Shown: positions 1-43,400, numbered from the stretch's first letter. The stretch: DNA of 64,000 bases from Candidatus Omnitrophota bacterium (GCA_021108075.1 JAIORP010000206.1:831-64830), one strand, 5' to 3'. The notes: generated from the letters alone by a model not told the origin. Translations and numbers: made by a program.

Positions 1-1400
1 GCCTTACCCTTGAGCAGGCGAACAACACTCAGCACACCTTCGGTTAATTTCAGACGGTCATTGTGCATAAACAGGCGTTGGTATTTTCTTGAATAGCCCG
101 TATGATCCCAGTAATCTTTCGGATACGTTCTTAAGGCGGCTGGAACAGATGTGTGGGTCGCGAAAACCAGACGTGTGCCTTCAAAGTAAGGATTTTCTAA
201 CACGGCCGGTGCGGTTAATGATGTGGCGGCTTCGTTTAAGTGCAAGACATCCGGTTTAATGTTCAAGCCCTTCATCACAGCGGCGGTGCCTTTACCCAAT
301 AACAATTCTTGCAGGAAGCGGTCCCATTCACCGGTTTCGGCATAAATTTCATCGGTAATGATTTCATTCACGTCTTCGATATAAATGACGGTTGCCCGGC
401 CGCCCTGACCAGAATCAAACACCTGGCGCCATGCCTGCACCTGCATCATCATCATGCGGCGGCTTGGGCCGACAGGCATTAAGATGTTAAACATCCGGGC
501 TTCACCTGTCTCGTCATCAACAATCAATTCAATGTTCTCGACATTGTTTTGGTAATCAGCGACATACCGCTCTCTTCGATATTGTCCGTCTTCACCTTTA
601 ACCGGTTTGCGTCCGTGGCGATATTTCAGCGTGAAGAACAGCATGTCCGCGCCTGGCAGGTCAGTCGCGCCGTAAACCGTGTCAGCCGCCAGCTTCCCTA
701 ATCCTCCGGCGAAAACGGAACCGGGGATCGCGATCTCACTGCTGACATAGGTCACGACCTTTCCGGCCATTTGATGAACGACTCTGCTGACCCAGCTGCG
801 GGCTTTAACCGGCATACGTGGTAATACCGCACCGACCTTGACGGTCTTCACTCCGGTCCTTCGGCGTAATTTCAAGTCTTCTACTAAGGCTTTAAAGACC
901 ATTTTAAATTTCTCGTAACTGACTGGTGTTTCTCCTTCAAATCGTGGTTGAATTTGATTAAACCATGATCTTAATTCCTCAACATGCGGGTAAGGTTTCA
1001 AAATCGTATTAACATAAGCGATGAAATCACCAATATGATGTCTGATAGATTCATCCATATCATCCTGCGTCTGATCATAGAAATATTTCAGGCCGGCTGC
1101 CTTGGCGTTCACGCGGTCATATTCATGGCCATCTTGATCAAGCAAGGCAAAACTGAACGGACCAACACTGTCTGTCGTGTAGAGCAAACTGAAAACCTGC
1201 TGGTCGCTTAAACCAGCAGCAAATATTTTCGCCTTTTCTTTACCCTTTCTGACGTCCTCGACCAACTCACTAAGCGACAGTGAATAGTCCCGACCGAACC
1301 GCGTTGCCTGTTGCTGTTGCGCTTCATCCAATGCATCTATCGGTGTCGCCTTAAAGGACGTGCCTGATAAGATGGAAGATTTAAAGGTCACATCGGCTAG
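1..1400 (-). other. GT35 alpha-glucan (glycogen/maltodextrin) phosphorylase-like domain; N-terminal part, continues beyond the window start.
   Basis: Translated at + ~590-725: EIAIPGSVFAGGLGKLAADTVYGATDLPGADMLFFTLKYRHG, the GGLG(R/V)LA(A/G)(C/D) ... DLG(L)P ... YRxGYF signature of GT35 phosphorylases. Translated at + ~135-257: KPDVLHLNEAATSLTAPAVLE and LVFATHTSVPAALRTYP, cf. (I/Q)HLN(E/D)(G/T)H and T(N/T)HT(P/V)(V/L)P(A/E) of the family. Confidence 0.6.
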
Positions 1401-4400
1401 CATATCAACATCATTATTTGTTCGGCTGAGGAAACGGTATTCCATCAAACGGTTTTCATCATGGCTTTGATTATTGATTTCATGGATAAAGATACGCGTG
1501 AAGCGTAACATTTGTTCGAAATCGGAAAGTTCCTGGACCCGGTTTAAGAAGGCGCGTTCCATATAGACGATGCGTTCTTGATCTGATTCCAGGTAGGTCG
1601 CCCCGAAAGTAATTCGGTCTGCTTCAATAACAAGTACTTTCACAGGAGGGCCACGTGTCAAATTGTCGCGATAAACGGATAAAAATTTAATGGCCCATCC
1701 CAGGTGATCTTTCATGCGTTCTGTTTCGTCATTGACTTTCAGACGACCATCATGAACAGCCGATAAATATTGCTTTAACTGCGCCTCTTCTTTGACTTCA
1801 TCTTCGCCGAGATAACCGGTATCGTTACGGCCCTTGTCGTCATCCTTCCTGTTCCGCTCCTGCCGTTTCTGTTTCCAAATCTGGACCAATGCGAATGTGG
1901 TCATATTTTCGATCACGCGTAAAATTGGGAAGGCCAATTCACCTTCTCTGTCTCTTTTATGATAGAAGGATTCATCATCCGTCGGACCTTTTTGTTTCTC
2001 AATAATCTCTTTAATGGCCAGGCGGATTAAGACATACGTAACATATCCGGCCCTTGATGGATTTTGCTTAACATAAATTGTGACATTGCTGTTAACAGCC
2101 GTATTGATTTCCTCAAATCTTTGACTGGATTTTAATATCTCTAACCCGGCTAATTTCCTGATCTTAGCCTTAGACGTGCGCTTTAATGTCCCTGTGATTT
2201 GATACGTATCGTCCTGGCCTTCTACGTTTCTGATCATATCTAAAATTATCAAGGCCCGGAGCGTCGCAGCTTCAAAACGGCCAGCCGCCATAACTTCCAC
2301 GCTTAATGTTTCTTGTTCAGCTTTTAATGTCTTAAGAACATCCGCAATGGAACCGCTCAGATCAATTTGAACGACTGGCTCGTCCTCTTCAACTATCGGT
2401 GTTTCCTCAACTACAACTTCCGGGTCAGCCGCGCTTTCTTCTGATTCTTCCTGTTTATCATCTTCCGTTTTTGTTTCTTCTATTTGCGGATTCAAGAAAC
2501 TTTGTGTTAAGCAATACCATGCCCAGCCAGCCTCTTCAACCTGCGAATCTAATTCCAGGACTTTCAAGCGGACCAATTCAGCCAATGTGTCCTTATCAAA
2601 AAACATGCCGTCGATGACGCTGCTCTCAAAAAGATCCAGTCTGGACCGCAGTTCCGCCATGACCTCCTGGACAGAACCGCTTAAACGAATGTCGCGTCTG
2701 GTCGCGCCAAAGATCATTTCGATCTCGCTGCCGTTTTTCAATGTGATTCTGTGGCTGTAGAAAAATTTTCTTGTATCTTTAATCGCAGCGCCACCTCTAT
2801 CACTCAATCCTTTAATCAAGTGGCTGACCAATTCATGATAAAGGATCTGCACCTGCGTGTCCGCTCTCAGGGCGAAGAAATAGGTATGCAGCACAACACG
2901 CTTTTGTGTTCCAGCGATCTGATAAGAAGCGACCTGACCGTCTGTTTCACGCTCATCCGTGGTAATGATGAACACAACGTTGTTCAATAATCGATTCAAT
3001 TGTTCGGCCAATGCCTGACCGTAAAGATCACCTAGCTTGACCTCATAGAACGGTGGTCCGCGTCGCTGTATTTCTTCGAACAAGTCTTTCAATCTTAATA
3101 AAAAGATGCTGTCTTGTTCTTTAGCCAAAGCATCCCCGCCCACAGAAGCTATGGTCTGATCTTGAAGGGTAAAGACGGTTCTTTGCGGTGTCTCAATGTT
3201 TTCATGGAAGGCCTGCGGAATAGCCAATGGATAATTCTTCGAATCTTTTTGTTGTTCATCCAACGCTGAGTATTCACCTTCTTGCGCGGTTACACCCAAT
3301 TGAGCGAGATATATCTCATCATTGACCGTCTCAGCTGTTACCCGATCAACCCTATCCTCAATGTTAAAGGCATTAAGAACCAAGCGGGCATATTCTTTTT
3401 TCTGTTCAAGCGAGGCAGTGGCCAGCAGCATTTGTTTAAAGATATCTCGTGCTTGTTGAAGGATTTCTTTTGGACCGACTTTCCCGTGATGGGTCTCTAA
3501 CCATGACATCCATTGTGCCTTCGCGAACAAAAGATTTGTCGCATGCCTTCTATTTTCATCCCAAATTCGAGCCTGCGCTAAAACGGATTCAAGCGAATAT
3601 GTTCCCGGGTCTTCTCCCCTCGGCCTGACGGCATTTCCGAGATAGTTCAGGAATGCGTCGGTTGGTTGAATGTATCCTCTGGCCAATAAATCATCAATGA
3701 GCCGAGGATCAAAGCCGCGCCTGTCAATAGACAGCACGCCAGCGTCTTCAACAGCAAAAAATTGCCTGATCGTTGGATCAATGAGATAAACACGTTGACT
3801 GCCTGTCAGGCGGATCATTAAGAAACTATGAGGGTATGATCTGAAAGAATAGATATCCTGCGTATAGACGTCAAAAATTTCAATGCGGCCTTTTGTTATT
3901 TTGTAAATGTTCGCGCGGATCTGATCTTTAGCGCCGCCACAGCATCCGGAAAGCTGTGCACCGGAGAAATACAGCCGTTGCTCCTGATATTGATGGTCTG
4001 TATTAAACTCTTCGGCCGTTGAACGTGCATACTGGAGGTGTTCCTCTTGCCATTGGGCGATGGCCTGTTGAATGACAATTTCGAGGTCTCGTTCTGTTAC
4101 CGGTTCTCCCCTTAAGAAGCGGCCTCGCGCGCCTTCGAATTTGTCTTGATCCGGTTGAACAAATTGAGGCATCGGTCCTTCTTTTTGCATATCAGCTAAT
4201 AACTGCGTTTCCTTCCGTGAGAGCGTTTCTGTTTCCATACTTTCGGCCTCCGCGAAAGCGTATGCTTCAGGAACGGCCTGTCTGTTTTGCGGCTTTGCTC
4301 CCCAAATCCCTCGGATAGCTTCCTTTTCCGGAACACGTAAGCGCCGGAAGTACCCAGAAGGCATCTCCATAAACATGTCAAACCAATAAATAGCGATTGA

Positions 4401-7400
4401 ATAGTCCTGAGGTCTTTGAATGTGCAGCCGTTCTAAGAGCATGGCGCTACCATGGTCAATCAGGTATAACCGGCCGGTTCGAACATCCACGCCCCAATTA
4501 TGCGCCCGAGATAAATCTCTGTAGTAAATGCCTCTGGATATTAATTCAAGGATGATATCGTGCGCCTGGGCGTCCGTAAAGACTTCACCGTATCCGGGAA
4601 CCACTAACCTGTTTGGTAAATCCGTGTATTCATTTTTGACATACACTTTAGGACGGACAACAATGAACGCTTGATTCTGAACGTTTCCATCGACGCGCAC
4701 ATCGATGTCGAATAACACACTAAACGGCAATAGAATTCCGCCCATGGTTTGTTTAATAAAATTCAGCTCTTTAATATATTTGTCTTTCTCATCCACGTAT
4801 TTCGCCCTGAGCAGGCCGATCTCATATGGGACGCTTTGATCTCGGGCCGCATAATATGTGAAGCTGCCGCCTTGACGGCCGATCTGCTCCCAATCATCCC
4901 TCGCCATAACAAAATCTTTTAAGCTCATTAAACCGTCTTTATCTGTTTTCAATGCGGAGGCAATGTCCATTATGCCTGTTCTCAGATAAGCCAGTAACCG
5001 GCTATCCGGCATCGACCCGTCCGCTGCAGGGATGCTTTCTAAATATTGCTGTTCCATCCGGCGGTTTTCTTGATGTGAACGATTGTTCAGCTCATGAATA
5101 AAGATGCGGATATAAAGCCGTTCTTGTTCTTTGGCGTCTAAAGATTGAACGCGCGTCAGGAATCCTTCTTCGATGTAGATGATGCGTTGCCGTGCTGTTT
5201 CAAAATATGTCGCGCCGAACGTGACCGTATCGGTTTTAATAACCTGGACCTGGACCGGCGGGGCGCGTGTCATTTGAGGTTGACGCGCTGATAAAAATTT
5301 CTCAGCCACAGAAAGGTACCGAATATATTCTTCCGTTTCATCGGCAATAACGATCCGGCCCACAGCAGCTTCAACTTTATATCGACGCAATTGTTCTTTT
5401 TCTGCCGCAGGGTTCTCTTCTAAATATCCGCCATCACCTTTCACATCACAGGCAGCGCCATCGACAGCTTGAATGCGGTTCAGTTCGGCAACCATATCTT
5501 TGGCCCAGGAATAGACGTAAACATCTAACGTCGGTAGTTGTGGATTATCAGCTAACCCGAGGTTAAGGGCCTGACTATCGATCAGGATATGAATGTTGAC
5601 CTTGAAGTGTTCCGCCAGAGCTTTCATCTCTCCCTTGAACGCCGGGCTCGATAATGTTGCGAGTTTAGCAAAAACGGTGAGTTGATGACCTTTTTCTTTT
5701 TCCTGCTCTTCATGTTTAAAAATCCATTCTAATGGGAGATACATCGCAGCCCATTGATAATCCGGCGATTCACTTAAAGCCTGCATGCTGAACTCGATCT
5801 TACGTTTGATACACCAATCCAAATGACCACCAGTAACAATGAGACGTCGGCCTCTGGCCAGGTCAACCTTCCAGGTCTTGGAACGGTTGATGGTAATACC
5901 GCTGACTTGTTTCTTAAGATGTTTGTACATGTCTTTGAGCGGAACAATACTGAAGAATTGAACCACAGGTATTTCTTGTTCCACCGCTTTAGTTTGCAGA
6001 GCGGCGATTTGTGCCTTAAGGTTTTCCGCGATTTCTTCAAAATATTCCATCAGATCCATCGCATCCGCGCGTTTATCTTTGTATGTAATGTACTCTTCAA
6101 AGTCCGGCATTCTGTTTTCAAGTTTGGCGCGCAAATCAGCGTTTAAGAAATCCGTCATGTAGAAAATCTTTTGGTCGAGCATTTCCATCATACGCTTTTC
6201 ATTGCCGAATTGATTTCTTAACGCCTTGGCTTGCGTCTCGGTCGCGATCAGGATAATATCCGCCTGCTCGATCATGGACACATAAACCGGTTTCATGTAA
6301 TGCACCCTGAAGTAAAAACTGCGTAAGCGGTTAACCAGCATCGGATCATCCGCTGTTTTAATAAATCTCAGCACCTCTCGAACATCTTCATCCCATCGGT
6401 CCCTTGCGTCCAGGAACTTCGCTTTGCGCAGTGTCGAGCTGGTACCCGCGGATACCGCTGCCACATCATCCAGATCGCCTTTCAAGACCATCTCAAGCAT
6501 TGGGCTGCGGTTGCGGTTGGCATTGCATAAGCAAAGAATATTCTCAACTTTGCTGATACCTCTCTTTCGAAGCTTTGATTCTTTATTATTCGGCGAAGAC
6601 ATAACCATACCGACGATGGACATACCCGCTAAGGCCATCCAATGATACAGATCTAGGCTGTCTGGAGTGACCGTTTCCAATCCGGTTGCCGCATAGAGCG
6701 TTGTCGGCATCAATAAGATCATAACGACGAAGACCTTCTTCAGCGCGGAACAGACAGCGTTCATCACTTTCAGGAGCTTATTACGCGTTGAAACATCTCT
6801 GGAAACCTCTTTGTCCTGAACATTTCCGATGATTGTTTGCGCTTGCTCGAATGCGTTCATTTCTTCACTGATGTCGACGTCATCGGTCCATCCTGTTAAG
6901 GCACGTATTTCTCCATCCACAAATTGTATCATTCGCGCGTAAAAATCGATCCAGTACTGTCGGTTCGCCTCTAACAGTTCTGGAACATCCTGTCTCATGA
7001 ATAAATTCCGTTTTCTCGTCTCAAGTTTCCTTAACTTTAACATTAATGCTTCCAGCTGTTCTGCCTTTTCGTCCGCATGCGTTTGAAGCAATTCTGACAT
7101 CTGCCTTTCATCCCAATCTGTTTTATTCAAGATGCGTTCAACGATTTTTTCTGTTAAAGTGTGTACTTTGTTATACCGATCTGATTCCCGTAAGACATAC
7201 TCGATCAACTCATGCAATAATATGTCTTCAACGGATTTCTTATTGATCCAGGACCATTCAATGTACAGGACATAAATATCATTTTCTTTAAGGAGGATCG
7301 CTCCAAAAAGCGGTCGGGTCGAATGGGTGTTGACCATGTGCACGGCATCAATAAAACGGTTATTACTCATCGGCGGGCCTGTCTCCAATCCTTGCTTAGC

Positions 7401-10400
7401 GAATAACTTTGATGCTTCTCCATGGACAAATGGTTGCGCGGCGCTTAACTCGCCCGCGTATGCCGGCAGACTTCTCTCGATAGCGTGAACCCAACCAAAT
7501 TCTTTGGATACTTTGATTATGTTTTGAATTTCGGCTAATGTCCGTTGCCCTGTTCCTCCCAGCGGCTGTTGATCTTTACTGCCTGCGGTTGTTTGTCTGT
7601 CCGTTCCAGAATTATTCTCAGGATCAACCGTATCTTCTTTATTTCTTCTTGGTCTCAGCAATCTTTTTTGCAACTGCAGTTCCACGGCCTTGCTGATGAC
7701 CCTTAATGTTCGCTCTTTATCGGGACGGCCGGTGCTTTGTGCTATTTCAATAAGCTCCGGCAAGGACTCAGACATCTCAAGCAGAGATTTATGTCCATAC
7801 CATTCCATAAAATTTTCACCATCAGATAAATATCTCAAGAACGCGACCTGCTCTTCACTTAATCCTTCGGTATCAGTCAATGTCAGGTCGCTAATATCAA
7901 CGACTTGCTGCTGAGTCTGACCCTTTGCCATATCCGATTCTAAGAAGCCCCATTGTCTTAACCCGGTCACCTTACCATTTTCATCCCGCTTGAAGAATGA
8001 CACATAAGCGCCCCTATCGCTATAACCTTCTGCTAATTCATAGTCGACATTCATCAATCCGCTTCCGGTTTCCGGTGATAACACAATCCAGGGTAATGCT
8101 GTTTGAGGATCATTGAATTTCTTTCTTTCGTTATGCCCGATGATCATCATAAATGATGCCTGTCTGTTCGAGAATTGGCTTGCCCGGGCACCGATCAGGC
8201 CATTATTAAATCCTCGCGGTCCTCCGTTCTCCATAAATTTAATGACGGAAACCGGCTTAATATGCGCATCGATATCCGAAAACCATTCCATGACGATGGT
8301 GAACGCCTCGCCCAACTCTTCCCACATCTTGTTTCTAAAACTTTCAGAATTCGGCAATGTCTCCATGCCTTCGAAATAACTACGGATATCTTCTTGGATC
8401 ACCTCATACGCCTCGATACCGTGATGCCCCTTGTAATGAACATTTAATGTCCGTGTTTTAAAATCGATCGGTGGAAGCGCGTGTATGTTTAAGTTTCCGA
8501 TAATATCAATGTAGAATATTCTGAAATTCTGCAATTCCCAAAGGGTGCGTTCTTTCACTTCCGGATTATCCATATAATTATCCAATGTGACTTCTTCAAA
8601 ACTTATCGGTTCAATGTCAAGTTCACGCTCAGCATTGATTTCCATAATCCGACGGTTATACGCATTTCTCTTCTCTCTAATGTATTCCAGGGTTTGACTG
8701 AAAATATCCGGAAGCGGCAATTCGACCTGCCGTGTATAACCGGCATCCTCTTTATTGAGTTCGTTCTCCTGGCGAATCTTCGCATTGATTTTCTTAATCC
8801 GCTTCATCTCAGGTTCAATGCTGACACGGTAAGCCGTGATATCAATCAGCTCTAATTCTTCAAGGCCGTGTTGTCTGAAAATAATATTCGCTCTATGAAT
8901 TTCGGCATTTAAATAATGTTCATTAACGCGGTCAAATTCAATGGTTGTCCAGCCGGCATGCTCAATAGCATCCTTTGCAAAATATCCGACACCATGTTTC
9001 GCTTTCATATTAACACCTTTAATAAACTGAACACCTAACACGCCGAGCGCTCTTGCGATGTCATGGTTACCGGCAAATACTTTTGCTTTACCTGTATCAC
9101 GCAACCATTTAACGAGATTGAAAAGTCCCCGAGGATCATTGCCCCGGTCATATTTATCGTTTAATCCAACAAACCTGATATCTTTTGAATGGATATCGAT
9201 ACCCGCCAGATCCAATGCCATCTTTAAATCATCCAGCGTATGTATTCTTCTGTAGATGTCCGGACCCAGTCCGAGTGAATGACCGATTAACGCGGCCGCG
9301 CGCCTGAATCCGCCGTGAAGGTCCTGCAATGTCACAATTTGAGGTATCTCTCCGGATCCGGGCTCTCGCAGTTCCTTATCCATTTCTTCTCTTAACCACA
9401 TTAATTCAATCAAACGTTGTTCGCCCTTATTAATAAAATCAAACAGCATAACATTCACGGCCAACCGCAATAAGCGGTTATCCAGCATGGAATAGTTTGT
9501 TTCATGAAGGGAAAGATTATTCGCTAAAACATGATACGCTTGCGGGGAGATAAAGCTAACCGTACTGTTCGGATCTATTCGGGCGGGATTATCTTCTGCT
9601 ATTAAGGATAGCCATATGGCAACAATGCCGTTATAGACCATTGTAAATTTCTTTGCGTCAAAAAGTTTAAGGACGATAAACATTCTGTATTTTATCGGCA
9701 ACTCGTATAGCCTGTGTTCACTCATCAGCCTCTGGATGAACCGCTCTAAATCAAAAGTATTTTGATTGTTCATGGTGAGGCTGCCACGCTCATCTTTCCA
9801 GTCTTCAAGGACCTTAAGAGCGGTAAAATATCTTTGACGGTATTTTTTGTCATTTACAGCAGAAACTTTCTTCGCGAACCATTTTCTATAAGCCCGGATC
9901 AGCAGGATGCCCAGCGCGCCGGCCGCGAGAATAATCCCGAAGGCCGCTATATTTCCAACAGATACAACCCCGAAACCTGAAAGGTCTGCTTGCTGAACGC
10001 TAACAACTTCACTGGCATATTCGGTCGCGGCAAAAACCGTTTCGCCGAAAAATAGAATGGCGCCAGCTGTCAGCAACGCCATTTTTCGTTTCATATGCTT
10101 TAATGGTCGTCGGTTATTTTTATCGTTTTGATTTACCCAAAACTTGGAAATAATATCACTGACAGGCATCTCAAATCTAACAATATTTGTATCATCAATC
10201 CCGGAGTAGAAGACAACATTATCGCCTTCCAGTCTTACGCCTGTCGCATAATTAATACCTTTGACTTTCTCAAGTGCGCCTTCATGATTTATAAACTTTA
10301 ATTGTGTTGAATCATGAAGAATAACCGGTGTTCCTAGAGGGCTTAAATTATCTTTGCGCAGTAAGACGACTGCCGTGTGGTAATATTTCTCTTCCGGACC

Positions 10401-13400
10401 CATGATAATTGCCATGTGGCTGATCGCAATTTTAAAAATATCTTGAGGTCTTTCTATGATTGTGTTAAATCCGCTATGCGATTTTTTAACAAGCGATATA
10501 CGGGCTTCAACCCGACATGAAATCTTCACGAACTTCTTAATAAATGTGATCGCCCTTGATTGGATAGTTTCGACCATCTTCACAATAGCAGGATGACGAA
10601 TAATGATATGAACAAATGGCAATCTAATGACATCCTGGAAGGAGGACGTGACACGTATTTTCGTCGCATCTTTCACGCTATGTTCGCGCCAATATTCTTC
10701 AGGAGGATAAAGCACATTGTTCATATCATCAAATAGATATATCTGAACAGCTCTATGTCCATCAACAGGTTCTTCCGCGCGGTCAATCAATCCAATTCTT
10801 CCCTCAAGCAATTCTGTTAGATATGTATTCTTAGAGAATTTGTTGGGACGTGCAATCCTGATGTCTTTTGACTTTGGCCGGCCCATTTCATCTATGTAAG
10901 CGAACTCACTGTGCCATGCGCCATCAGCAACCTTCACATAAACAGCACCTAATTGACCGTTAATTTGTGTTATGCGAGGATCCTCCCCATTTTCAATAAG
11001 AAGTTCAGATAACTTGAATTTAATACCTTCTGTATCCTCTGTGTCACGGACTAAAAGAACGATATCGCTGTTGTGTTCCTTGAAAGGATTATCTTCTCTG
11101 GAAATCCTTCGGGCCATTAAGTTGCCGTTTGGTAATACGGCCGGATTCAGGTACCGATCGTTCTTATCACTATCATCAACATAGATCAATTTTCCTATCG
11201 GATAAGAGTCTTGATGTTTCAAAGCGACGATTCTATTCTTGATCCATTTGAATAACAAGGAAACAACCACAAAACCTATGACACCGAGGACAAGCCAACC
11301 CCCTCCGCTGAAAACTGCTACGCCTGTGACATCAAATCCAAAAATAATATAATCAACAAGTGATCCTCCGAAGACCGTCCAGACAACGAACAGACCGGCA
11401 ACAGCGGATGATCGTAACTCTATCGAGGGGGATTTAGAAGCTTTCTTTTGGACAGGATCTGCTGATTTGTCTGTTAACAGCGGTTGCTGATCAACGTGTT
11501 CTTGAAGCGCCTTCCATGAAATCCATCTACCCAGCCTGGTCAACGCGGCAAAAGACTGCGCGTTCATTGTAAGAAATCGGAACGAGTCATGGAAACCATC
11601 TCGTCCAACACCACCGACAGAGAAAAGAAATCGATTTGGCATGATGACCGCGACGCCTTCTGTATCGAAAAGATCTTCCGGACGATAAACACCGACCGCC
11701 TGAATGCCTTCTTCTAATAGATAGTTGAAGATACTGTGCGCCTGGGAAGGACTAACGTGGCTTCCAGACAATAGCGCGACAGAAATGTTTTCAAATCCTA
11801 ATGTTCTTAATCCTGAGACAATATTAACCACTCCGGACGGCATGCGGGAATCAGCCTTATACATCATGCCAATATGAGATATGCCGGCAAATTCACCCTG
11901 CACAGGATGAACCGCTTGAATAATAACCGCGCCGCAGGTGTAACAGCCTTTGGTGAAAATCTTATAATCCTTATGCTGTGCGGAAACCAAAGACATCCTG
12001 TTCGGAGTGACCGTGATCGAGACAACCGCATCGGCATCAACAGGATTGATCTCCGCTCCTTGTTTGCCCAAATCGACATCGATTCTGAAGTTACCCTGCT
12101 TTTGTCCGGACTTGAATAATGCCACTGGATCTGTTTGCGCTTTTTTGGCGCTCCAGGTGATTGAAAACGGATCATGTTCTGCACGGACAACATCCTTTGT
12201 TAATTGATATCCGTTCGCTTTCACGAATGCTTGCTCATTTGCGATAAATAATTCAACCTCACCCGCCATGCGGTGATAACCGGATAACATAAGCTTGTTC
12301 ACGCCCGCCATTCCAGCAGTGAATTCAATCGCGTTATAGTTACTGACGTCATACGTACCGGTCCATGTTCCGATATTCACCAAAGCGATCATTTGCGCTC
12401 TACCGGCATTAATCGCGCTGGTGGTTGAGGCGATAAAATCTTCATCGGTCAGGCTGCCGTTAAAGACGCAATAATCCTGTCCTTCAATAAAACCATTTAA
12501 GCGCATATGCCCACGGGCCTTGAGGAGCTCCGACTGATAAAGTTCGATGAGATCAACATGCCCGGCGCCTAATTTGAAGGCCGCTAAGGAAAGGATGCCG
12601 TCACCGGCGCCCAGGTCAACGATATCCATGTCTTTTAGATTATCATTCATCATATGAATGATTAATGCGGTATTAAAAATTGAGTAACCGGTATAAGCAA
12701 TAGCTGAACGGTCGAGGTCGCGTAACAGGATCACATTTTCGCCCAGGGCTGCTTGAAGCGCAGAAGACAATAATTGATAATATCCCGCGTCGATCATAAA
12801 TAAATAACCGATGCGAATCACCATCATTTTCCGGCCGTAAGCGGTGTTCACAAAGCCCTCTTCACGTTGATAATTTAATTGATCGTTATAAACGTAGTTC
12901 GGCTGGGTTGCGAAGGCCTGACCCCAGGTATCAACCATATCCGTTGGAAGCTCTTTCAACATATCAGCGGCCCATTCTTCACTGCGTTGAACGGCTGGAC
13001 CATATGTTTGCTGATATGCGCTTGTTGGCATTAATGTTTCAGCATACGTGTTGAGCGCAAAGGCGAACAAAAGGCTGTATTCAAACGATGGATTCTTCTC
13101 GATCACATCCCGTTCTGGTAAACCAAGGTCGTAATATTTACCCGCTATTCCGTAACCAACTTGACCTTGCTCATAATCGGATTTGAGTTGCTCTAAATGT
13201 TCAGGATGTGTTTGCGCCATCATGTCGAGATGCTCTTTGGCGCGGGCACTTAAAATCTCATCAGCAAAAGCGGTTTCAACCAGTGTGGCCAACATGTGTC
13301 TGGATTTTGGCATGACTTCATAGCTGAAACGTAATACGTAGTTTCCGTATAACTCATGGACAATACCGGCGACATTTCCCTGGGTCGCGTAAACGATCAA

Positions 13401-31400: not shown

Positions 31401-34400
31401 GTCTAAATATGTTTCGCGGATAAATTCTTTTGTGTCCCGATCATACAACAATACGCCCATCGTCGCGACCTGGATATACTTATCCAAACCAGTCGCCGCC
31501 TGCAACCGGTCCGGTGTCGTGAGAATGACCTCCGCATCAGCAGGCGTAATATAACTTTCGTGATCCTCAACATTGTCCACTAACTCCCGCAAGAATTTAT
31601 TGTTGTCTATTTCTTCCTGTGTCCGTCTCGCGTGTGGGTGGGTTAAACCGATTAATGTTCCGTCATCCACTTTGTTGAGCTTGACGATGCGCGCAAACTC
31701 GCCATTGAAGATTGATGCTGAATGATCTGTTCCAACCTGGCCAATTTCCAACGGCACATTGTAACGGACAACAACATCTAAATGATTAGCCGTGTTTTCT
31801 TGTTGTAAAATTCTGTCGACCAATGGAATGCTGTCATCCTGGAACTTCACGCGTTCGCTTTCCGGTAAATACTCGATCAAGTCTTTTTGCAGGATCAGCT
31901 GGGATTCCGGAATAAAATTGTAGGTTAAATTGTTCATGCCCGCATCCGCTTCTGAAATCTTGGATATGACTTGAACGCCGACTTCACGCGTGTCTTCTCT
32001 GGCTGCCAGGTAAACATTTGTTCGGTGATACGCGCTATGAACCATATCATCCAATAAAACCTTACGGACACGGTCGTTCCAGCTTTTACCGGCAGGATCG
32101 ACTTGACCAATACCGGCTGATTCTCTAATTCCAAGAACTTTTGGAACTGCGACTTTATTAAAATGGGTTGGGTTATCGCCGTACAGAATACCTAAAGCCT
32201 CTACCATCAGCGATGTGCCTTGAATAAAATCGGTGAAACGTTGTCTGGCTTCGGTCACAGGATAAGTATCACTGTTTTCACGTTCAACTTTGAGACTTTC
32301 GTTTAATTGCTGAATGGCCCTGAGATGGGCTTCTCCATTCTTGAAGATGGATTTGATTCTAGCGTCCCGTTTTGGAAAAGCTTGTCGCGTGCGTTGATCA
32401 GCTTCTTCGTGACGGCCTGTATTCATCTCGATGGTTTCATGAAATACGATTGCTTCTAAAGCTGATTTTTGTTTTTCTTCTGTCTTAAACGTTCTTAAGA
32501 ATTTCTTGTACAGGGCTTTTGATGAGAAATAAATCGTTACTGCGTGTTGGTTACCGTCTGATTCAAATTCCGCCCAAATAAAGCCTTCCGGCGGAGCTTT
32601 ATCAAAACTTGTCTTGAAGTATTTAACTCGAACCGGTCTATTCGCATCAACGAAAAATGAAATGATGTTGGAATATTCTTTTACGAGTTTAACGCTGCCT
32701 GGATCTTTTGCTGTAGATTTAAGTTTGCTTTCAAGGTCCTGTGGAATATTACCCATGTAACCGACAGCCTCAGGAGAAGCAATCTCCGTTCGGCCGTCAA
32801 CCGTGTAAGCCTTGACGATCTCATAGAATTCTTTCAACGCTTCAATGTCTCCGGTCTGACTGGCTGTCGTGGTGATACTTACAAATCGGTCCCAATCTTC
32901 CGAGTTATTTAGGGCAATGACGTCTAAATATGTTTCGCGGATAAATTCTTTTGTGTCCCGATCATACAACAATACGCCCATCGTCGCGACCTGGATATAC
33001 TTATCCAAACCAGTCGCCGCCTGCAACCGGTCCGGTGTCGTGAGAATGACCTCCGCATCAGCAGGCGTAATATAACTTTCGTGATCCTCAACATTGTCCA
33101 CTAACTCCCGCAAGAATTTATTGTTGTCTATTTCTTCCTGTGTCCGTCTCGCGTGTGGGTGGGTTAAACCGATTAATGTTCCGTCATCCACTTTGTTGAG
33201 CTTGACGATGCGCGCAAACTCGCCATTGAAGATTGATGCTGAATGATCTGTTCCAACCTGGCCAATTTCCAACGGCACATTGTAACGGACAACAACATCT
33301 AAATGATTAGCCGTGTTTTCTTGTTGTAAAATTCTGTCGACCAATGGAATGCTGTCATCCTGGAACTTCACGCGTTCGCTTTCCGGTAAATACTCGATCA
33401 AGTCTTTTTGCAGGATCAGCTGGGATTCCGGAATAAAATTGTAGGTTAAATTGTTCATGCCCGCATCCGCTTCTGAAATCTTGGATATGACTTGAACGCC
33501 GACTTCACGCGTGTCTTCTCTGGCTGCCAGGTAAACATTTGTTCGGTGATACGCGCTATGAACCATATCATCCAATAAAACCTTACGGACACGGTCGTTC
33601 CAGCTTTTACCGGCAGGATCGACTTGACCAATACCGGCTGATTCTCTAATTCCAAGAACTTTTGGAACTGCGACTTTATTAAAATGGGTTGGGTTATCGC
33701 CGTACAGAATACCTAAAGCCTCTACCATCAGCGATGTGCCTTGAATAAAATCGGTGAAACGTTGTCTGGCTTCGGTCACAGGATAAGTATCACTGTTTTC
33801 ACGTTCAACTTTGAGACTTTCGTTTAATTGCTGAATGGCCCTGAGATGGGCTTCTCCATTCTTGAAGATGGATTTGATTCTAGCGTCCCGTTTTGGAAAA
33901 GCTTGTCGCGTGCGTTGATCAGCTTCTTCGTGACGGCCTGTATTCATTTCAATAATTTCATGGAAGGCAATAACTTCATAGGCATCTTTTTGCTTTTGAT
34001 CTGTTCTAAATGTTTTTAAAAACTTCTTGTACAGGGCTTTTGATGAAAAATAAATAACGAATGGTTTTTGGTCATTAATGGATTCAATCCGTGCCCAAAT
34101 GAAACCTTCCGGTGGAGCTCGGCTTAATGTTTTTGTGAAATATTTAACTCTAATCGGAGAGTCGATTAAGAATGGAATGGTCTCCGTAATTTCTCTAACT
34201 TGTTTGACATTGCGTGCATCATTCGCATACTCGCGTATCTCTTCGACTGTCGATTGGCCAATATTACCCATATATCCCACCTTAATCGTATCATCAGATC
34301 TTCTGTCTCTTGTTGTGTCTTTCGCCTTCTTCACCGCAGCTTTGACGGAAGACAATCTTTTTTCCGGCAATGATATGGACATTTCAATTTTTGTGCCTTG

Positions 34401-37400
34401 CTCGGCATCCGGGGTCGTTTCTGTTTCCGCTTTGACGCGGGCCATTTCTTCGTCTAACAATTCATCAACCGGTTTTTGTCGAACAGCTGTTGGCGCCAAT
34501 TCACCGTTTCTCATCACAAACGCGGCTAACCCTAAACGGCGCATGGTGTAGGCCATATTGAACTGAATGTCTTCGACCAATTCTTTCGTATTGGCCCGCA
34601 TGGTTACATACGCGCGTTGATCTGTGAATAATGTGAATAAATGTCCGGCAACTTCATCCAGGGATTTAATTTGATAGCTTAATTCATCTACCGGCCGAAT
34701 AAGCTCTTTGCTGATTGCGCGTGGAACGACCTTTCCTTGCCTTTCAATCTCGTCAACAACGTTAACCAGATACCCTGTTTCGCCATGCTGGATTTGCCGC
34801 CCTATTCCACCAACGTTGTAAGCAATCACCGGAACGCCCTTATCGATCGATTCAGAAACTTTAATTTCGTAACCTTCAGCTAATGATAATTGTAAGGCCA
34901 CACTTGAGCGTCTTAAAATCGCGTTCAAGACGTGGTCGTTATGTGGTAAGCGGGCAACCTTCACGTCTTGAGCGAATTCAGATGGATATAAACTTTGAAT
35001 ACGGTCTAAAGTATCGATATACAGTTTCATCCCGTCGGTATCATCAACAGCGCCATGACCGGCTAAGATGAGCTGCGGCAGTATTGCGGCCGTTATATCG
35101 TTTTCCTTAATATATGATTTCATCATGACCCAGAAGCGGTAATAAGCTTCAATCACGCCAGGAATGTTCTTGGATGGATCCATACGCGCGACTTGAATGA
35201 TGCTTGGACGATTAAGATCTAAGGCGGTCATCAATTCCGGATTGATGCTGATTTGTCTTTGAGTGAACCATTCTCGCATCTCATCCTGGTGTTCTGCTAT
35301 ATAGCGGGCGATCACGCCTGACTCTGTCGCTGTTCCGGCTTCATGGGCCAGGAAGAAATTGAAGCGGGCTAATGCGTCAGCGGTTGTTTCCGTTGAATGC
35401 TCCGTGTTCAAGTCATCGACACGGTCTGTTGACGGGTTCATAATGACTGTCGGTTTATCGGCGATAACATTTTCAGGAACAGATTCTTCGATTGGATCTG
35501 TTGGCTGAATGATAACGACGTGCGCGTATTTCTTAATGGTTTGCCACAAGAAATCCCAGTTAGTTCGCGCCACGGTGCCTTCGCTCATATCCGCCTCGAA
35601 ATGGATGTGTGAACGATAGATCCACCTGACCGTCTTGCCGTATTTGTCCGCCATAGCCTGAATGTATGGCATCATTCCGGAGGGCTGATAGTCATGGTTG
35701 AAAATTACGATTTGATCTTTCGCTTTAGCGATAGCCGATTCTAATCTGGCAGCGTTGACCCTCCAATTTTCTCTTAAAAGCGCTTTGTCTTCCTCTGTTA
35801 ACGCTCGCACCAACCGGCCCTGGAATGTGTTGTGGAAACTGTTCTTTGTGATGTTAAAGACTTTTTCATTACCTGTCATCACAAACCAGTGGGCATCTAA
35901 TCCTAAGGCAAAACGAATGAGTCTTTGGAAGGCATGCAGCATTAAAGCCACTCCTCCTCCTTGAGCGGTTGAATTAATATCAAAAATCGTCACATCTTTT
36001 AATTCTCTTGCCCAGGAGAGGATGTTCTTCCAAATGCTCGCTGATGTTGTTTGCTCATAGCGGGCTTTGGACATCAACGGTGTGACAATGACTTCTTCTG
36101 TTTCTTTGTGTGTTCTGACTTTATAAACATCAAATGGCCCTTCTGTTTTGTAATGGCTAGCCACCCAGCGGGCTGTAACTTGAGATTGTCGGGCATTGGC
36201 GGTCATGTTACCGGCCATCATGGCGAGGACGATGTCTTGCTCTGGCAGCGTTTCAAGATCAGCCGCTTGCGCTCTCAACCAGAACAAATCAAATCCTGTA
36301 TCATATCTTAAGAACGTTCCTAACTCTGTTGCCACTTCCTCATTCAATCCAATAATCGCAGTGCTTGTGATCCGTACGTTTTGTCTCTGCGCTAAGATCC
36401 TTAACGCCTTTGCAATCGCTTGCGTATATGCTGTGATGTCCTCTTGCGCTTTTGGCGCGGCAATGGTGCTTGCCCGGCCGTCTGTTAAGGCAACGTAAAT
36501 ACCGTCTTTGACAACATTGATACCCGCGTGTGTTGTTGGGCGGACCGTGTCTGTTGTGGCCTGCAACGCCGGGCGGATGGACCAAATTCCGCCGATCAAT
36601 ATGATGGCGACAACCGTTATGACAACACCTGCGACAATCGTAACACTGATCCAGGGAGCGGCTGTTGCGGCTGTAACCATTGTCGCTGTCTGCGCTGTGC
36701 CGGCAGCCTTCACGGTCGACGCGGTCAAGGTCAACATCACCAAAAGAATGCTGAATAATCCGCGTTTTGCACCTTTGCGTCCTTTTTGTCTGTCCGAAGA
36801 TGTCTTGATTGTCGCGCTGTCTCTTCTTCCGCCCTTATCTCCGTTATCATCGTCTTGATCGTTTTTGATTTGTGTCTGATCAATAACTTCGACTTTAAGT
36901 CCTTGATATTCTTGTCCGAATAATGTTCTAAAGAAATCCGCGTGGTAAGCGCCGACAATAAACCGGACTGATTTACCTGATTGAACAGCGCGCGCAACGA
37001 TTTGTTTAATATTTTCTTGCGCCATTTGCATGCGCCATTCAATAATAATATCTTTAACAATATAGTGAACAGCCGCTTCAGATGTTGGATGATCAATAAA
37101 TGATCGAATCATCCCGACGCGTGGTTGTTGGCCTTCTGGAAGTTCTTCTGTCATGCGGGTCAACTCAATGGCCAGGGCCCTTAAAACCTCCGTCCAATTG
37201 GACATGAAGTTTGTCCAGGTTAATAACGTCCAGGGCGACTGATTAACAACATCGACTAATTTTCTTTCTGAACGGCGAGATATATATGTATTAAATTGAC
37301 GGTACAGTTGACGAGTAGAGGCTGTTAATTTCTGGTCATTAATAGCGTTCCAAGCCGACCTGAATGTCGTGTTCGTGCGGGCGTAAATCACTAATTGTTT

Positions 37401-40400
37401 GATGACGTCGTTTAAGACTCGCGTTTCTTGATGTGCCAGGAGTCCGTAGCGGCTTAAGACATAGCTTAAGACAACCGCTAACTCATCTTCAATGCCGTAG
37501 ACCTGACCTTTAGACTGGTAACCGAAAAGCAGCTCAACGATGGCTTCAACGGATTGCTGATTATGAACGACGTTCTCCATACCCACGACAATGTCGCCTT
37601 CATTCGCGCGTTGAACATATTGTTTCAAGAATGGCTGATAGCTTTCAGATGAATGGTCCACTGCGAAAACTTTGATGTCCGGTTGTTGTGGAATAAGGTC
37701 TGGATGAGCGTATTGAAGAACAGACGCTAATAACTCAGCAGAAATGGTTGCTGTTGCCTGAACGTTTATGTCTGTTAAGCCTAATCGTTGTTGAATCAGC
37801 TTCACATATAATTTTTCATAATTAGCCGCCATATTCTCTAATGTGTACAGGCTTAACACGCGTTGCCGGCCTGCGCGGCCCATCAATGCTCTTGTTGGCT
37901 CATCCCTGGCCAGTCTGACAATTGCTTTTGCTAACTCATCAGCTGATTTTGGTGCAACGAGTACGCCGGCTTCTGTTCCTAATGTTTCAGGGATGCCGCC
38001 GACATGGCTGGCAACGATTGCTTTTTCAGCTACCATGGCTTCCAGCATACTTAACCCTTGACCTTCAGAAATGGATGGCAATGTAAAAATGTCCATCATC
38101 GAAACAGCTTCAGCGACATATTTATGTGGAATGACGCCTGGCAGGATAAAAATCCCTTCCAGGCTCATTGCTTTGATTTCCTGTTCCAGACTTTCACGTT
38201 CTTCACCTTCTCCGATGAGAACAAAACGGGCGTTTGGCATTTGTTCATAAATTTGCTTGGCCGCGCGGACGAAATATTTCTGGCCTTTAACAGCATGTAA
38301 ACGAGCCAATGAACCGATAACAAACTTACCGTCAAATTCTTTTGCTAACGCGCGAAGCGTCGGATGCGTCACGTGTGTAATCGGTGTTTCGAATAGTTTA
38401 ACATTAATACCGTTTGGAATAATTTCGATCTTACGTTTGGCAATGCCTGTTTTGATGTGTGCGGCTTTTTCTTCCGCACTTAAAGCGACTAAGGCATCAT
38501 CGACCAATCGAATTCCCCATGTGGTTGAATGATAGCCAACCAAGCCGCGAATAACGCTGGACCATTTATTGATATCCGGCATCGAGTGATAGGTTGTGAC
38601 CACAACGGGAATACCGACTAAGTATTTAGCAATTATTTTTTTCACCAGGACTTTCAATCCACCGGTCAAATGAACGTGCAGAACATCCGGATCAATTTGT
38701 TTATAAAGTTTGTATTCGCTATATGTGCTTAACGCAGCTCTTTTTAGTTTATTCAGGAGCGATAAAATTTTTGCCGTCTTAGCCGCATATTTTGAATAGA
38801 ATTTACGTGGCAGCTTATACATCGGTTTAATAACAAATTTAACTCCGTGTTCTTTAGCGGTTCGAATGTCGTTATCATATTTTTCTTCCGTGTTTCTTGA
38901 TACGGTATAACAAGAATAAATGTTATTGTTTGTATGTGTCATCAGGTCCAAGGCCATCTTTTCAGCCCCACCACGGCTAAAGCTTCCGATGAGATGCAGC
39001 ACGCGAACGCGTCGGCTTTGTGAAGCAAGCTCCGCCTTCTTCTTCTTTAAGTGTGTGCGGACCGCCAACCATTGTCTGAAGGCTAAGATCGATAAAATGC
39101 CAAGTCCGGCAAGGACAAAGTATGGGGCGATCGCAATAACCGTTGATATTGTTAACCATGGTGTTGCCGCTGCCGTGACCATTGTTGTTTGCGCTGTTCC
39201 GGCCGCTTTGACAATGGCTGGGATGACAATCATTAACGCCGCCAGCGATACGATCTTTGTTGTCCGGCTCAAGCGGTCTGATTTTTTGATAACAGTATCC
39301 GTCTTATCCATTTCAGCCCGGATGTCTCTGAAGATGCGAACGAGAAAGACGACCAGGGCCGCTAACGCAATCACAATGCCGGCGGTTACAGCGATTGTTA
39401 TCCAGGGAGCCGCTGTTGCGGTTGTAACCATCACGGCTGTCTGTGCTGTCTCAGCTTCCTGTGTAATGGATGCGATCACGCCCAGGGCAATTGTCGGAAT
39501 ATAAATCAATTTCATGGTCAACAGGTATATCTTGATGAACACTTTTTTCACGCCATTCTTTTTAACAACACCTGTTGCTCCGCGATCATCGCCTTTGCCA
39601 AAGGCTCTTGTTATTACGGCTTGATACGGAGCCAGTGTGATGACGATATCTTTTTGGTTTAATCTTTCGCCGGTTAATTCCATGGATTTAACAAAATCTT
39701 GAACGCTTAATCTCTGGTCGGCTTGATAACCGATTTGATAGAGTTGTTTTGCTTTGAGGCGCACAACCTTTTCGTCGGCTGTTAAATTCACTAACCCTAA
39801 GATCGTTTGTTCCTGATCAACAGATGTCCGCGCGATAGCAGCAACGCCCTCAGCGACCTTCAACATTGTTTGTTTGGCCTGCGGAGCTAAAGCTTTAAGC
39901 AGCTTGCGTGAATGCAACATATCGATCAGATCCGGTGTCGGACCCTTAACTCTCATAATCTTATTCACCGCGTCCAATAGTGTTTCCGGGGCGCGGTGAA
40001 CGCTGCGCAATGTGGATGTTCTTTCGTATTCAGCCATATTATTAGAGGAAGCGAGGAAGTCTTTCACATCAAATCCAGGAACACCTTTAATCAGCATTAA
40101 GAGGGCGTAGATAGCGATATATTTTTCTTTCACGGCATTCTCTTCTTCTTGTATCGACATGGCCGTCATTATATCCCAAATCGTGGTATTTAGTTCATAG
40201 GCCTTTTGTGTCTTGTAAAGCTTGCTGCCGAATAAGGCTTCTGTGACTCTTGAGGCGGATTTACGGAGCGTCGAGACATTGTTGATGGAACGGTTACTGA
40301 TCAATGTGACACCGTATTTTGCCTTTGAATATTCTTGCCACAATTGAACCAATTGATCTTGCTTGCCTCCAAGCACGTCTTCACCTGAGCGAAGGGCGAT

Positions 40401-43400
40401 TCCATCATGCTGTCTTAAAAGGTTCAACATTGTGACGTCTGCGGCTCCGTTCAATTGATCCATAAACCTGGTTAATTCTTTTGCGTCGCCTTTGTAAAAG
40501 GAATACAGCAGCACGTTCGCAAGGGCGAAGTTATACAGCATTTGACCTTCACCATTATTTGTTCCACTGTATGATAAGGCGTCTTTATACGGCGCGTTGA
40601 TTTCCGGTAAGATCACGACCTCAGGAGCGACTTCATCAAGGATGGCTCTGAATAATTTAACCATCAGGTGGGATTTGTCATGATGAACGCTGGCGGTTCC
40701 TAATTCTTTCCACAGGTAAGGGATCGCATCGACTCTTAATATCTTTGTGCCATGGCTTAATAAGACGAACAGGACCTCGATCATCGCTAAGAGGACTTGT
40801 GGATTTCTCCAGTTGATGTCCACTTGTTGAGCGCTGAAGGTTGTCCAAACAAGCACGGTCGTTCCGTCAGCTAACCGGTATGGTGTTAATAACGGATGTG
40901 ATCGTGGACGAACAACTTCGTCGAAATCCTGTTTATTGACAACTTGACCATATTGATCCATGTATTCATTTTCAAATTCATAAACGTTCTGGCTGACTTC
41001 TTGTCCGTCCTGATCAAAGTAGTGGATTACTTCCTGGCCGTCTTCAACGCTTGCCTGTTGATAATATTTAGGAACATAGTAGATGAAATAATCTTTGTAT
41101 TCTTCAACATTATTTAAGAACGCGGTGAACCATGGATGGTCTGAAGCGATATGACCAACGATGAAATCTAACATCAATTTCATATCATGTTCGCGGACGA
41201 TCTTTTCAACCATTGCCCAGTCACCTTGTTTCGCGTCAACCCGGGTGTGATCTTTTGTTCCAAATCCTTCGTCGACTGAGTATGGGAACAAGCGTGGCAA
41301 AATGTGCAAAATTGTGAATGGCTGGCCAACTTTGCCTAAGGCATGCAAGAAGAAGTTAAGCGTTTCTAATGGATACTGATCTGTTGTATTCGTGAATGTG
41401 TCCGGATAGCTGATTAAAGTGACATCGTTTTCTGTTAAGGCAACATTGTCCGTTTGCCATTTCTTAATGGCTGAAGAGTATTGAGCGGTTAAGGCTTCCA
41501 ATTGAATCACAATATCAGCTGTTTGCTCCGCCCCATAAATGCGTCGGAGAATATGGCTGGTTCTATTTCGTCCTGAAAGACGGCCAGTCTTTTTAAATGT
41601 TTTCATTTCTGCTCGAACGAACCATGCGGAGAAGATAACTGCCGCGGCGCTGATAAGCGTGACCGCTCCAACTACAGCCCAAGGAGCAGTTGCCACCATG
41701 ACAGCTGTCGAAGCTGTTCCGGCAAAGTCAACGCTGGTTGGGATAAGCATAAGGATACTGACAGCGACAATAATTTTGATGAGCCGCGGAAGGATACGGC
41801 GTGTCTGTGGCGTTTCAGCGACCATATCTTGTTTACCATCGGTCATGGCCTTGTTGTCATCTGTCTCATCTATCTCAGCCTGCATGTGGCTTAAGACAAC
41901 CCAGAGGCTGACACCCGCGACAATAACGCCGATGATCATCGCGGCAACAATAACAATGCTGAACCATTGTACTGCCGCCGTTGTTGTCACAACGCTTAAT
42001 GTTTGATTCATTCCGGCACCAAAACTTTTAACCGGCAGCATCATCAAGGCTCCGATAATAATTGATGTTATCGTTGTGACCATTGTCTTGCGGCCGGAAC
42101 GAGCGGCGATTGCTGTCTGACGATCAATTTCTTGAACATCGCCGAATCTGGCCACGCTTAATTTATCATCCTGGACATTGTTAATGTGTGCCCTGTATTC
42201 AGATGGTGAGTAAGCTTTAATCTCCCGGGAGGTATCAGCGGCCGCTTCAACCAAAACAGCCAGGCGGACATCTTTATCTTTTAATGAAGCGGCAACAGCG
42301 TCTGTTCTGTCATTGATATCCCGTTGGACTTCCGCGTGGTCAATATCTTTGACGTCATCGTAATCATCACTATCTAAGTAATAATCATATTCAATGCTAG
42401 CCACAACGTTATCAGACACGGTTAATTGATCGAAGTCTGGATGGTTATCATAAGAGAATAAGTTGAATGGTGTTTCCAATAAACCAGCCTTGATCAATCG
42501 CTCAACAGGGGCCACCAACCGGTCGTGGGTTGCGACACGGATGATCGGCGCGTTCAAGCTGAAGGAATAACCGTCAAGGACTTGAGCAACCGCAATGATT
42601 TGCTCTGAGGTGTACTCAACTGTTCCCGTTGATAATCTTCGTAAGCTTAATTGAACAAGGATAGCTTCTCTTTCGCTGTGTTCAATCCTGTTCAATATTA
42701 AGGTCTGATGGACTTTTTCGTGTTCAAGCACAAAACTCCAAATCTGTTCAATAAGATCCATGGAGATGTCGGCTTTTTTCAGCGTCGGGACCACAACATC
42801 TTCGTAGGAAATGGTCACAATCGTGTCTGTGTCAATGTCATATGAAGCCACTGTCGCCGGTGGAGCTGTTCTGTTGAAGTTGATCACATCTTCCAGTGCT
42901 CTTATGGCTTGAGCATATTCTCTTAATATTCGGGCTGCTTCTGCCTGCCCGGCTTCTTCTAATGCCTTAACGATATTAAATAACTCTTGTGACATCATAT
43001 CTCTGCGGGTCTTGTTCGCTGAATGCTCAGCTGATGCTGCCGGGCCATAATCAACGGTCTTGCCGCTGATTGGTTTTGGTGTGCCGCTTAATCTCCAACC
43101 CGTGTTGTTATCGTTATAAATGATTTCTGCTTCAGTCACATATTCTTGCGCATCCATATCAATAACGCGCATCAAACCGTCAATAATGCCGGCATAGTTT
43201 CCGTCGCTTAACCGGATCATTAAATTGCCCTCATCGTCTTCCATGTCTGGAGTTGGATACTCAATCATGCCACCGTCAACATCAATTTGATATTCTGTAC
43301 CCATTGTGTCGGTTACAATAATTGTTCCGTCAATAAAGGAGACGTCCGTTCTGGTTTCGACATGTTGTCCATCAACAGCTAAGTGCTCGTCCTCTTCCAT

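Follow-up and report, generated by a model that had tools for sequence, protein, structure and literature searches.

A single reading frame across the window

The DNA analysed here, a stretch of 64,000 nucleotides from a Candidatus Omnitrophota bacterium (GCA_021108075.1, JAIORP010000206.1:831-64830; hereafter the window), is occupied by one open reading frame (ORF) that encodes part of a giant protein carrying enzyme modules and transmembrane (TM) hairpins (Table 1). A direct scan for stop-free stretches revealed that one frame of the minus strand, read from position 63998 to 3, is free of stops over 21,332 codons, against 938-1,696 stops in each of the remaining five; from the base composition the probability of such a run without stops is ~1e-555. 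The codon-position bias (G1 0.32-0.36, G2 0.13-0.17) is uniform across every 2,000-codon block of the frame. The window is an internal fragment of the gene of a giant multi-enzyme membrane protein of at least 21,332 residues, where residue i corresponds to window bases 63999-3i to 64001-3i. The first-pass annotation of this DNA had described one ORF at 1-41450; the single ORF is real, but it lies on the minus strand, covers 3..63998 and is cut at both ends.

A search of the whole 64 kb returned neither tRNA genes nor Rfam families nor short tandem repeats. The ORF listing gave only three complete ORFs of at least 150 residues, all on the plus strand (34078-34551, 38920-39504 and 41539-42006), antisense to the giant frame and probably spurious. 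An alternative genetic code was rejected, since reassigned stops would show in the frame and none are present. Cysteine makes up 0.2% of the 21,332 residues.

Enzyme modules of the giant protein

Searches of the translated frame recovered all seven enzymes named in the first-pass annotation, on the minus strand and where it had placed them, and its view that they are fused within one membrane-anchored megaprotein is borne out by the stop-free frame together with the domain matches and the TM hairpins. The GH13 domain is matched by PF00128 (E 1.3e-18, Pfam), has sucrose phosphorylase as its top NCBIfam match (E 9.5e-39) and finds its closest solved relatives among glucosylglycerol/sucrose phosphorylases and amylosucrases (E 3e-27, PDB search). 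Against TIGR03852 it reaches 133 bits, below the equivalog cut-off of 334. The residues RVD7757A, LPE7799I and QHD7865G align with the corresponding motifs of 7xdq, and Asp7757, Glu7799 and Asp7865 are, following established knowledge of GH13, what we take to be the nucleophile, the acid/base and the transition-state Asp (regions II-IV); the nucleophile Asp and acid/base Glu that had been proposed for checking are kept in the alignment, as is the third catalytic Asp. Region I, previously read as NH-x-S-DHPWF, has the actual sequence GHIASDHPWF, with 'GH' and not 'NH'.

Among the glycosyltransferases, the TreT-like domain is recognised by PF21269 (E 6e-30, 104 bits, gathering score 27) and by NF041139 (E 4.5e-51), and both its halves align to TreT of P. 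horikoshii (2x6q, E 2e-35); its score of 174 is below the Thermococcales equivalog cut-off of 775. The third GT4-like region, suggested earlier at ~16.2 kb, is indeed a GT4, with the added detail that it resembles mannosylglucosylglycerate synthase (MggS), and its homologues are ordinary GT4 proteins of 420 aa. The E-x7-E pattern that had been given as evidence is not informative when taken alone, as it is found 120 times in the giant protein.

The nucleotidyltransferase region gave no match to the Pfam NTP_transferase or GlgC models at E <= 5 (Pfam, NCBIfam), and the PDB sequence search was blank as well. It has 76 strong homologues at ~50% identity, and AlphaFold2 (AF2) run with 43 of them as alignment gave a pLDDT of 93.4. 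The module contains both the G-x-G-T-R loop of a pyrophosphorylase domain and, after it, a left-handed beta-helix, its C-terminal part matching left-handed beta-helix proteins, and it keeps 49 of the 49 invariant columns of its 44-sequence family. The earlier assignment as a GlgC-like NTP-transferase with such a helix holds for the fold and the coordinates, and its GSGTR motif is present as LPGSGTRMSP; the module is, however, closest to the GDP-fucose pyrophosphorylase of FKP rather than to GlgC. FKP (the Bacteroides L-fucokinase/L-fucose-1-phosphate guanylyltransferase, PDB 9iis and 9iit) is only 12% identical to the window module, which lacks the kinase half. As a further difference, the stand-alone relatives of the module are linked to PMM and PMI and not to fucose genes, which makes mannose or glucose the likelier sugar.

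Directly upstream of the nucleotidyltransferase in the giant ORF lies a HIT-superfamily domain which gave no match in Pfam, NCBIfam or PDB sequence searches and needed a family profile. An exhaustive search found 149 relatives, and a profile of 18 sequences (the window region and 17 relatives) matches yeast Apa2, the diadenosine tetraphosphate (Ap4A) phosphorylase (4i5t), with E 4.6e-10, and more weakly HINT2 and aprataxin (E 0.005-0.04). The orthologue in L001, the only close relative of the giant protein (see below), carries a precomputed GDPGP1_C match. The HIT-like motif noticed earlier beside the nucleotidyltransferase is accordingly part of an Apa2/GDPGP1-type domain. It keeps 7 of the 7 invariant columns of its alignment, including the family-invariant His11351, while Asp11349 stands in place of the first triad His.

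Only the N-terminal ~310 residues of the GT35 domain are inside the window, and the rest, including the position of the pyridoxal phosphate (PLP) lysine (motif EASGTxxxK), lies beyond the window start. The continuation was instead studied in L001 (ena:ERZ21869602:ctg79529l), where PF00343 scores 28 bits (gathering score 27). Both GT35-like modules of L001 were read for the PLP site (positions ~840-880 and ~2990-3030) and have Met at the position of the PLP-binding Lys, EASGTSYQM compared to EASGTSGEK of 9l6i. The phosphorylase domain of the first-pass annotation was recovered in its N-terminal part, but that it is a catalytically intact phosphorylase is doubtful, and the starch-synthase/phosphorylase-like modules widespread in giant proteins may not be PLP enzymes.

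A nucleotidyltransferase family without a model

Stand-alone homologues of the nucleotidyltransferase (~550 aa, ~50% identical) come mostly from Omnitrophota metagenome-assembled genomes (MAGs). In one of these (GCA_049645965.1, L002 1712-6152) the gene stands in an operon with PMM, PMI, sugar ATP-binding cassette permeases and GH113, and over the loci L002-L052 the family is found beside or fused with PMM/PMI in Omnitrophota, Myxococcota, Planctomycetota and Kiloniellales, the fusions to PMM or PMI in Myxococcota being from Nannocystaceae. The family is probably a so far unrecognised group of GDP-hexose pyrophosphorylases.

The same module is also found inside other very long open frames of an unclassified MAG, FCPU426, Elusimicrobiota and Omnitrophota, among them frames of at least 7,175 aa in L003, at least 6,010 in L006 and at least 5,231 in L038. 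The frames of L003 (the whole 21.5 kb locus), L006, L038, L004 and L042, which are from MAGs of an unclassified bacterium, Elusimicrobiota and candidate division FCPU426 and have >5,000-7,000 residues, run off their loci and combine the nucleotidyltransferase with PGM/PMM domains; the very long frames share no segment with the giant protein besides the nucleotidyltransferase module. Their occurrence in other phyla means that giant sugar-enzyme proteins are not restricted to Omnitrophota. The HIT module likewise recurs both as a stand-alone gene and inside other very long frames.

What is new here is a widespread nucleotidyltransferase family with no Pfam or NCBIfam model which exists both as a stand-alone gene and as a module of unrelated giant ORFs, and this distribution shows a route by which giant proteins are assembled, the capture of ordinary enzyme genes. 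Judged by homology the protein is a mosaic of captured enzyme genes, each module being homologous to an ordinary stand-alone cytosolic enzyme. With the stand-alone GH13_18 phosphorylases, TreT, MggS, GlgP-like proteins (TIGR02094) and Apa2/GDPGP1 the window modules have folds and key catalytic motifs in common; they differ in being covalently joined and tethered by TM hairpins, and in scoring far under the family-specific cut-offs.

Transmembrane hairpins and topology

A hydrophobicity scan revealed ~30 uncharged hydrophobic segments spread along the giant chain, most of them paired as hairpins, in which two helices (helix 1 and helix 2) joined by a loop of 8-22 residues are preceded and followed by a Lys/Arg-rich stretch. 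For seven hairpins the flanks contain 2-9 Lys/Arg and the loops 0-1. Four hairpins (residues 7405-7461, 8164-8220, 8248-8307 and 9080-9141) share the loop AGTA(Q/S)T..MVT.A.A.PW, with 0 matches in 200 shuffles, and the hairpin segment between GH13 and GT4 is paralogous to residues 7332-7494.

The positive-inside rule is established knowledge and not a measurement made here. Because the hairpin flanks are rich in Lys/Arg and the loops nearly uncharged, we infer from this rule that the loops point outward and that the enzyme modules lie on the cytoplasmic face, a placement that agrees with the need of the enzymes for nucleoside triphosphates (NTPs), phosphate and nucleoside diphosphate (NDP) sugars.

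The cassette loop (…VKAAGTAQT.TMVTA.TAAPW…; 36576-36761, 39078-39509 and 41616-41786) is kept in L001 too, beyond the need of a plain anchor. The first helix of the hairpin cassette is similar to a signal peptide located inside the chain, including an AxA-like site.

Table 1. Features of the window, with positions in nucleotides and residues of the giant ORF in brackets
Feature	Position	Strand	Evidence or remark
Single stop-free frame, partial giant gene, 21,332 codons	3..63998	-	open at both window ends
GT35-type alpha-glucan phosphorylase, N-terminal part	3..~940 (~21020-21332)	-	TIGR02094 E 5.8e-11; PDB 9l6i E 2.6e-5
Third GT4, divergent, MggS-like	16077..17129 (15624-15974)	-	NF041101 E 5.6e-24; E15936-x7-E15944
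Sugar-1-phosphate nucleotidylyltransferase with C-terminal left-handed beta-helix	27753..29342 (11553-12082)	-	motif LPGSGTRMSP; AF2, family alignment
HIT-superfamily domain, Apa2/GDPGP1 nucleotide-phosphorylase branch	29364..30311 (11230-11545)	-	motif ASIHDLHLHG; family profile
TreT-like trehalose glycosyltransferring synthase	34740..36023 (9326-9753)	-	Pfam, NCBIfam, PDB; E9708-x7-E9716
GT4, retaining GT-B glycosyltransferase	37818..38972 (8343-8727)	-	PF00534 E 5e-34, PF13439; E8645-x7-E8653
GH13, sucrose/glucosylglycerol phosphorylase and amylosucrase type	39969..41441 (~7520-8010)	-	Pfam, NCBIfam, PDB
Hairpin	11250..11411 (17530-17583)	-	hydrophobicity and charge
Hairpin	22752..22952 (13683-13749)	-	hydrophobicity and charge
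Hairpin upstream of TreT-like domain	36576..36761 (9080-9141)	-	kept in L001
Two hairpins between GH13 and GT4	39078..39509 (8164-8220, 8248-8307)	-	loop motif AGTAQT..MVT.A.A.PW
Two hairpins directly upstream of GH13	41616..42086 (7305-7371, 7405-7461)	-	hydrophobicity and charge
Two polytopic TM-helix clusters	58377..62366 (545-798, 1467-1874)	-	hydrophobicity; no family match
Histidine-kinase-type ATPase, weak match	13827..14087 (~16638-16724)	-	E 1.5e-3 (Pfam); E 1.7e-7
Small kinase domain, Kdo/RIO/Bud32 type	20610..20951 (~14350-14463)	-	Pfam, NCBIfam
Tandem unit of ~507 residues, two and a half copies	30699..34280	-	repeat comparison
APH-type phosphotransferase (kinase)	51171..51788 (4071-4276)	-	E 2.2e-10; outside the range annotated in the first pass

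A collinear relative

When searching 5.8 billion proteins with the GH13-GT4-TreT block a single close relative was found, the protein P0001 on the ENA metagenome contig L001; no close relative appeared when using the C-terminal 633 residues (genome and metagenome contigs) or an alignment of the TreT region (metagenome contigs). Residues 6995-14025 have a collinear counterpart in L001 with 35-88% identity (mostly 50-88%), and the enzyme domains are no better conserved in this comparison than the unannotated parts. L001 lacks the second GT4 module and has two GT35-like modules ahead of GH13, and the module order therefore varies between relatives. In the region 17139-22879 of L001 about nine frame changes occur within a protein sequence that can be aligned continuously, leaving called genes of 104-635 residues, which suggests indel errors of the long-read type in that assembly. 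L001 shows how a giant gene may be split by indels into many called 'genes', a caution for databases. The nearest relatives of the single modules are mostly from Omnitrophota MAGs, and also from FCPU426, Elusimicrobiota and Myxococcota.

Proposed function and other explanations

The enzymes form a consistent set centred on hexose-1-phosphate and NDP-hexose, which fits a membrane-tethered processing array, and we give a probability of about 0.6 to the reading that the giant protein is such an array, working on the cytoplasmic face around these intermediates. The hairpins, entering from the inside, forming a short outside loop and returning, would fasten the protein to the inner membrane with its enzymes exposed to the cytoplasm. 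Glucose-1-phosphate, derived from sucrose-type glucosides and from alpha-glucan, could there be formed or consumed by the GH13 phosphorylase-like and the GT35-like modules. Activation of hexose-1-phosphate, most likely to GDP-hexose, would fall to the FKP/GlgC-like nucleotidyltransferase, and the adjacent HIT phosphorylase would catalyse the opposite reaction. NDP-hexose would serve the GT4, TreT-like and MggS-like transferases as donor for making trehalose and glucosylglycerate-type glycosides. As a whole the array, acting as one polypeptide and possibly with channelling, may interconvert storage or imported glucosides and compatible solutes. The first-pass annotation had offered, side by side, a membrane-tethered assembly line and a delivered effector; the fusion in a membrane-anchored protein and the coherent enzyme set are in line with the former.

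Several points weigh against this interpretation. For about 70% of the chain the Pfam, NCBIfam and PDB searches gave no family or fold, with no NCBIfam match for residues 1-7266 and no match by PDB phmmer for residues 16100-21020. All enzyme matches are under the NCBIfam equivalog cut-offs, and the substrates named are guesses. The GT35-like module may, judged from L001, be non-catalytic. The topology was derived from hydrophobicity and the positive-inside rule, the hydrophobic segments 15015-15046, 18006-18034 and 19089-19107 are ambiguous, and as both gene ends are outside the window an N-terminal signal peptide is possible and the absolute topology is not fixed. In addition, Nielsen & Lui place the metabolic modules of their longest giant with both signal peptide and TM helices, of 147 thousand amino acids (kAA), on the outer face (10.64898/2026.06.07.730766).

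This last assignment, and the possibility of a signal peptide, would suit a surface-exposed or prey-directed effector, for which the setting would be episymbiosis or predation and whose modules would lie outside the cell, or be inserted in a host or prey, and act on envelope glycans or storage carbohydrates. Degradation of surface polysaccharides of prey has been suggested as a role of giant Omnitrophota proteins, and peptides of the 39,678-aa protein of V. archaeovorus are up 3-fold in attached cells (PMC10066038; 10.1101/2023.11.21.568195). We nevertheless consider an effector unlikely in the present case. The flanks beside every enzyme module are rich in Lys/Arg and the loops uncharged; the nucleotidyltransferase, HIT phosphorylase, kinases, histidine-kinase-type ATPase and GT4/TreT modules need NTPs, phosphate and NDP-sugars that are unavailable extracellularly, and the domain searches found no lectin, dockerin, adhesin or lytic domain among the 21,332 residues. 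The resemblance of helix 1 to a signal peptide in many hairpins (basic n-region, hydrophobic core and small-residue c-region) raises the different idea of a polyprotein that replaces an operon and is cut by a signal peptidase (e.g. I) in the hairpin loops (…VKA|AGTAQT…) after co-translational insertion. Candidate sites are TVKA|AGTAQT, IVKA|AGTAQT, NVAQA|QD and TLYA|ATG, the loop sequence is kept between cassettes and in L001 beyond what an anchor requires, and every module matches a normal stand-alone enzyme. If true, the product would be a stoichiometric set of single-pass membrane-anchored enzymes that face the cytoplasm and act in the metabolism of NDP-hexose, trehalose and glucosylglycerate. 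AxA-like triplets are, however, frequent by chance, no protease domain was found in the window and published work handles such proteins as single chains, and we find processing of this kind rather improbable.

Most of the modules could also have lost their activity, the protein then being a scaffold of pseudoenzymes that bind sugars or nucleotides or serve a structural purpose, as in a structural or adhesive coat. The Met in place of the PLP lysine in L001, the Gly where Asn is usual in region I of GH13 (GHIAS), the Asp in place of the first HIT triad His, the scores well under the equivalog cut-offs and the large unannotated part of the chain all speak for this. The GH13 nucleophile, acid/base and third Asp are nevertheless kept, as are all three E-x7-E pairs and every invariant column of the nucleotidyltransferase and HIT alignments, which is the pattern of enzymes under purifying selection, and there is in our opinion little likelihood that the chain is mainly an inactive scaffold. 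That the long frame is not one gene, but the product of mis-assembly or of collapsed or expanded repeats, is hardly credible. Two segments of 1.2 kb within the ~507-residue tandem unit (31225-32430 and 32746-33950) have 100% DNA identity with a period of 1521 nt (507 codons), a type of site where assemblers err, and go back either to a tandem duplication that is very recent or to an expansion in the assembly; L001 is moreover broken into many frames. An assembly error cannot, on the other hand, erase from one frame the ~1,200 stop codons expected over 64 kb, the repeat keeps the frame with a period divisible by three, and the breaks in L001 fall within collinear, highly similar segments, as indel errors in that contig would and separate genes would not.

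Comparison with described giant proteins

Among recent finds of metagenomics, bacterial proteins tens of thousands of residues long belong to the least understood, and both their function and the membrane side of their modules are debated. Giant ORFs with many TM helices have been reported for most Omnitrophota classes (PMC10066038). One described class (class 1), the 'multi-enzyme metabolic cluster', has a sugar-metabolism Pfam module, kinases, HIT domains, methyltransferases and TM helices at a spacing of roughly a few hundred residues, and giants with TM helices only are read as cytoplasmic-face enzymes, the face itself being debated (10.64898/2026.06.07.730766). The window fits class 1 in length, domain mix and TM pattern. 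The length (>10 kAA) is shared, as is the tiling of the chain by many enzyme families with none dominating, the presence of GT-B synthase/phosphorylase-like and GT group 1 domains beside kinases, HIT, a methyltransferase and a histidine-kinase ATPase, TM helices every few hundred residues, and a sequence that is nearly unique with a recurrent domain content. The text of the class 1 paper does not name GH13 sucrose-phosphorylase-like, TreT-like, MggS-like or FKP-like modules, all of which are in the window, and compared to class 1 no PGM/PMM, ROK, radical SAM or receiver domain was found in this 21 kAA fragment.

The 'Archaeovorins' are giants rich in GT5- and GT1-type domains with many TM regions and occasional sugar-phosphate enzymes (West-Roberts et al. 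2023, 10.1101/2023.11.21.568195). With these and the 39,678-aa protein of Velamenicoccus archaeovorus (Seymour et al. 2023, PMC10066038) the window shares a giant ORF, numerous TM regions, prominent glycosyltransferases (GT5-like, GT1/GT4), methyltransferase and glycoside-hydrolase-family domains and a few sugar-phosphate enzymes. Membership among the Archaeovorins was rejected, as their hallmarks, HEAT/TPR repeats, dockerin, SecA DEAD-like, NUDIX, peptidase and lytic transglycosylase domains, were not found in the 21,332 residues of this incomplete gene, whose missing ends could hold them.

The concatenation of enzymes in giant proteins has already been described and is not new biology (10.1101/2023.11.21.568195; 10.64898/2026.06.07.730766). 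What this fragment adds is a readable and coherent module set, evidence on topology and the unmodelled nucleotidyltransferase family. It is unusually readable in that seven named modules converge on one metabolic node, each bracketed by hairpins with a charge pattern pointing to the cytoplasm.

Other domains and repeats

Besides the two kinase domains and the ATPase listed in Table 1, the giant ORF contains a weak methyltransferase-like domain. The ~507-residue tandem unit gave a pLDDT of 38 in AF2 when the alignment consisted of the in-window copies only. A second in-frame direct repeat, with 98% DNA identity and a period of 1890 nt, was found at 21266-21565 and 23156-23455 (also 20017-20137) and appears in the protein as repeats at residues ~13485-13650, 14115-14272 and 14518-14660.

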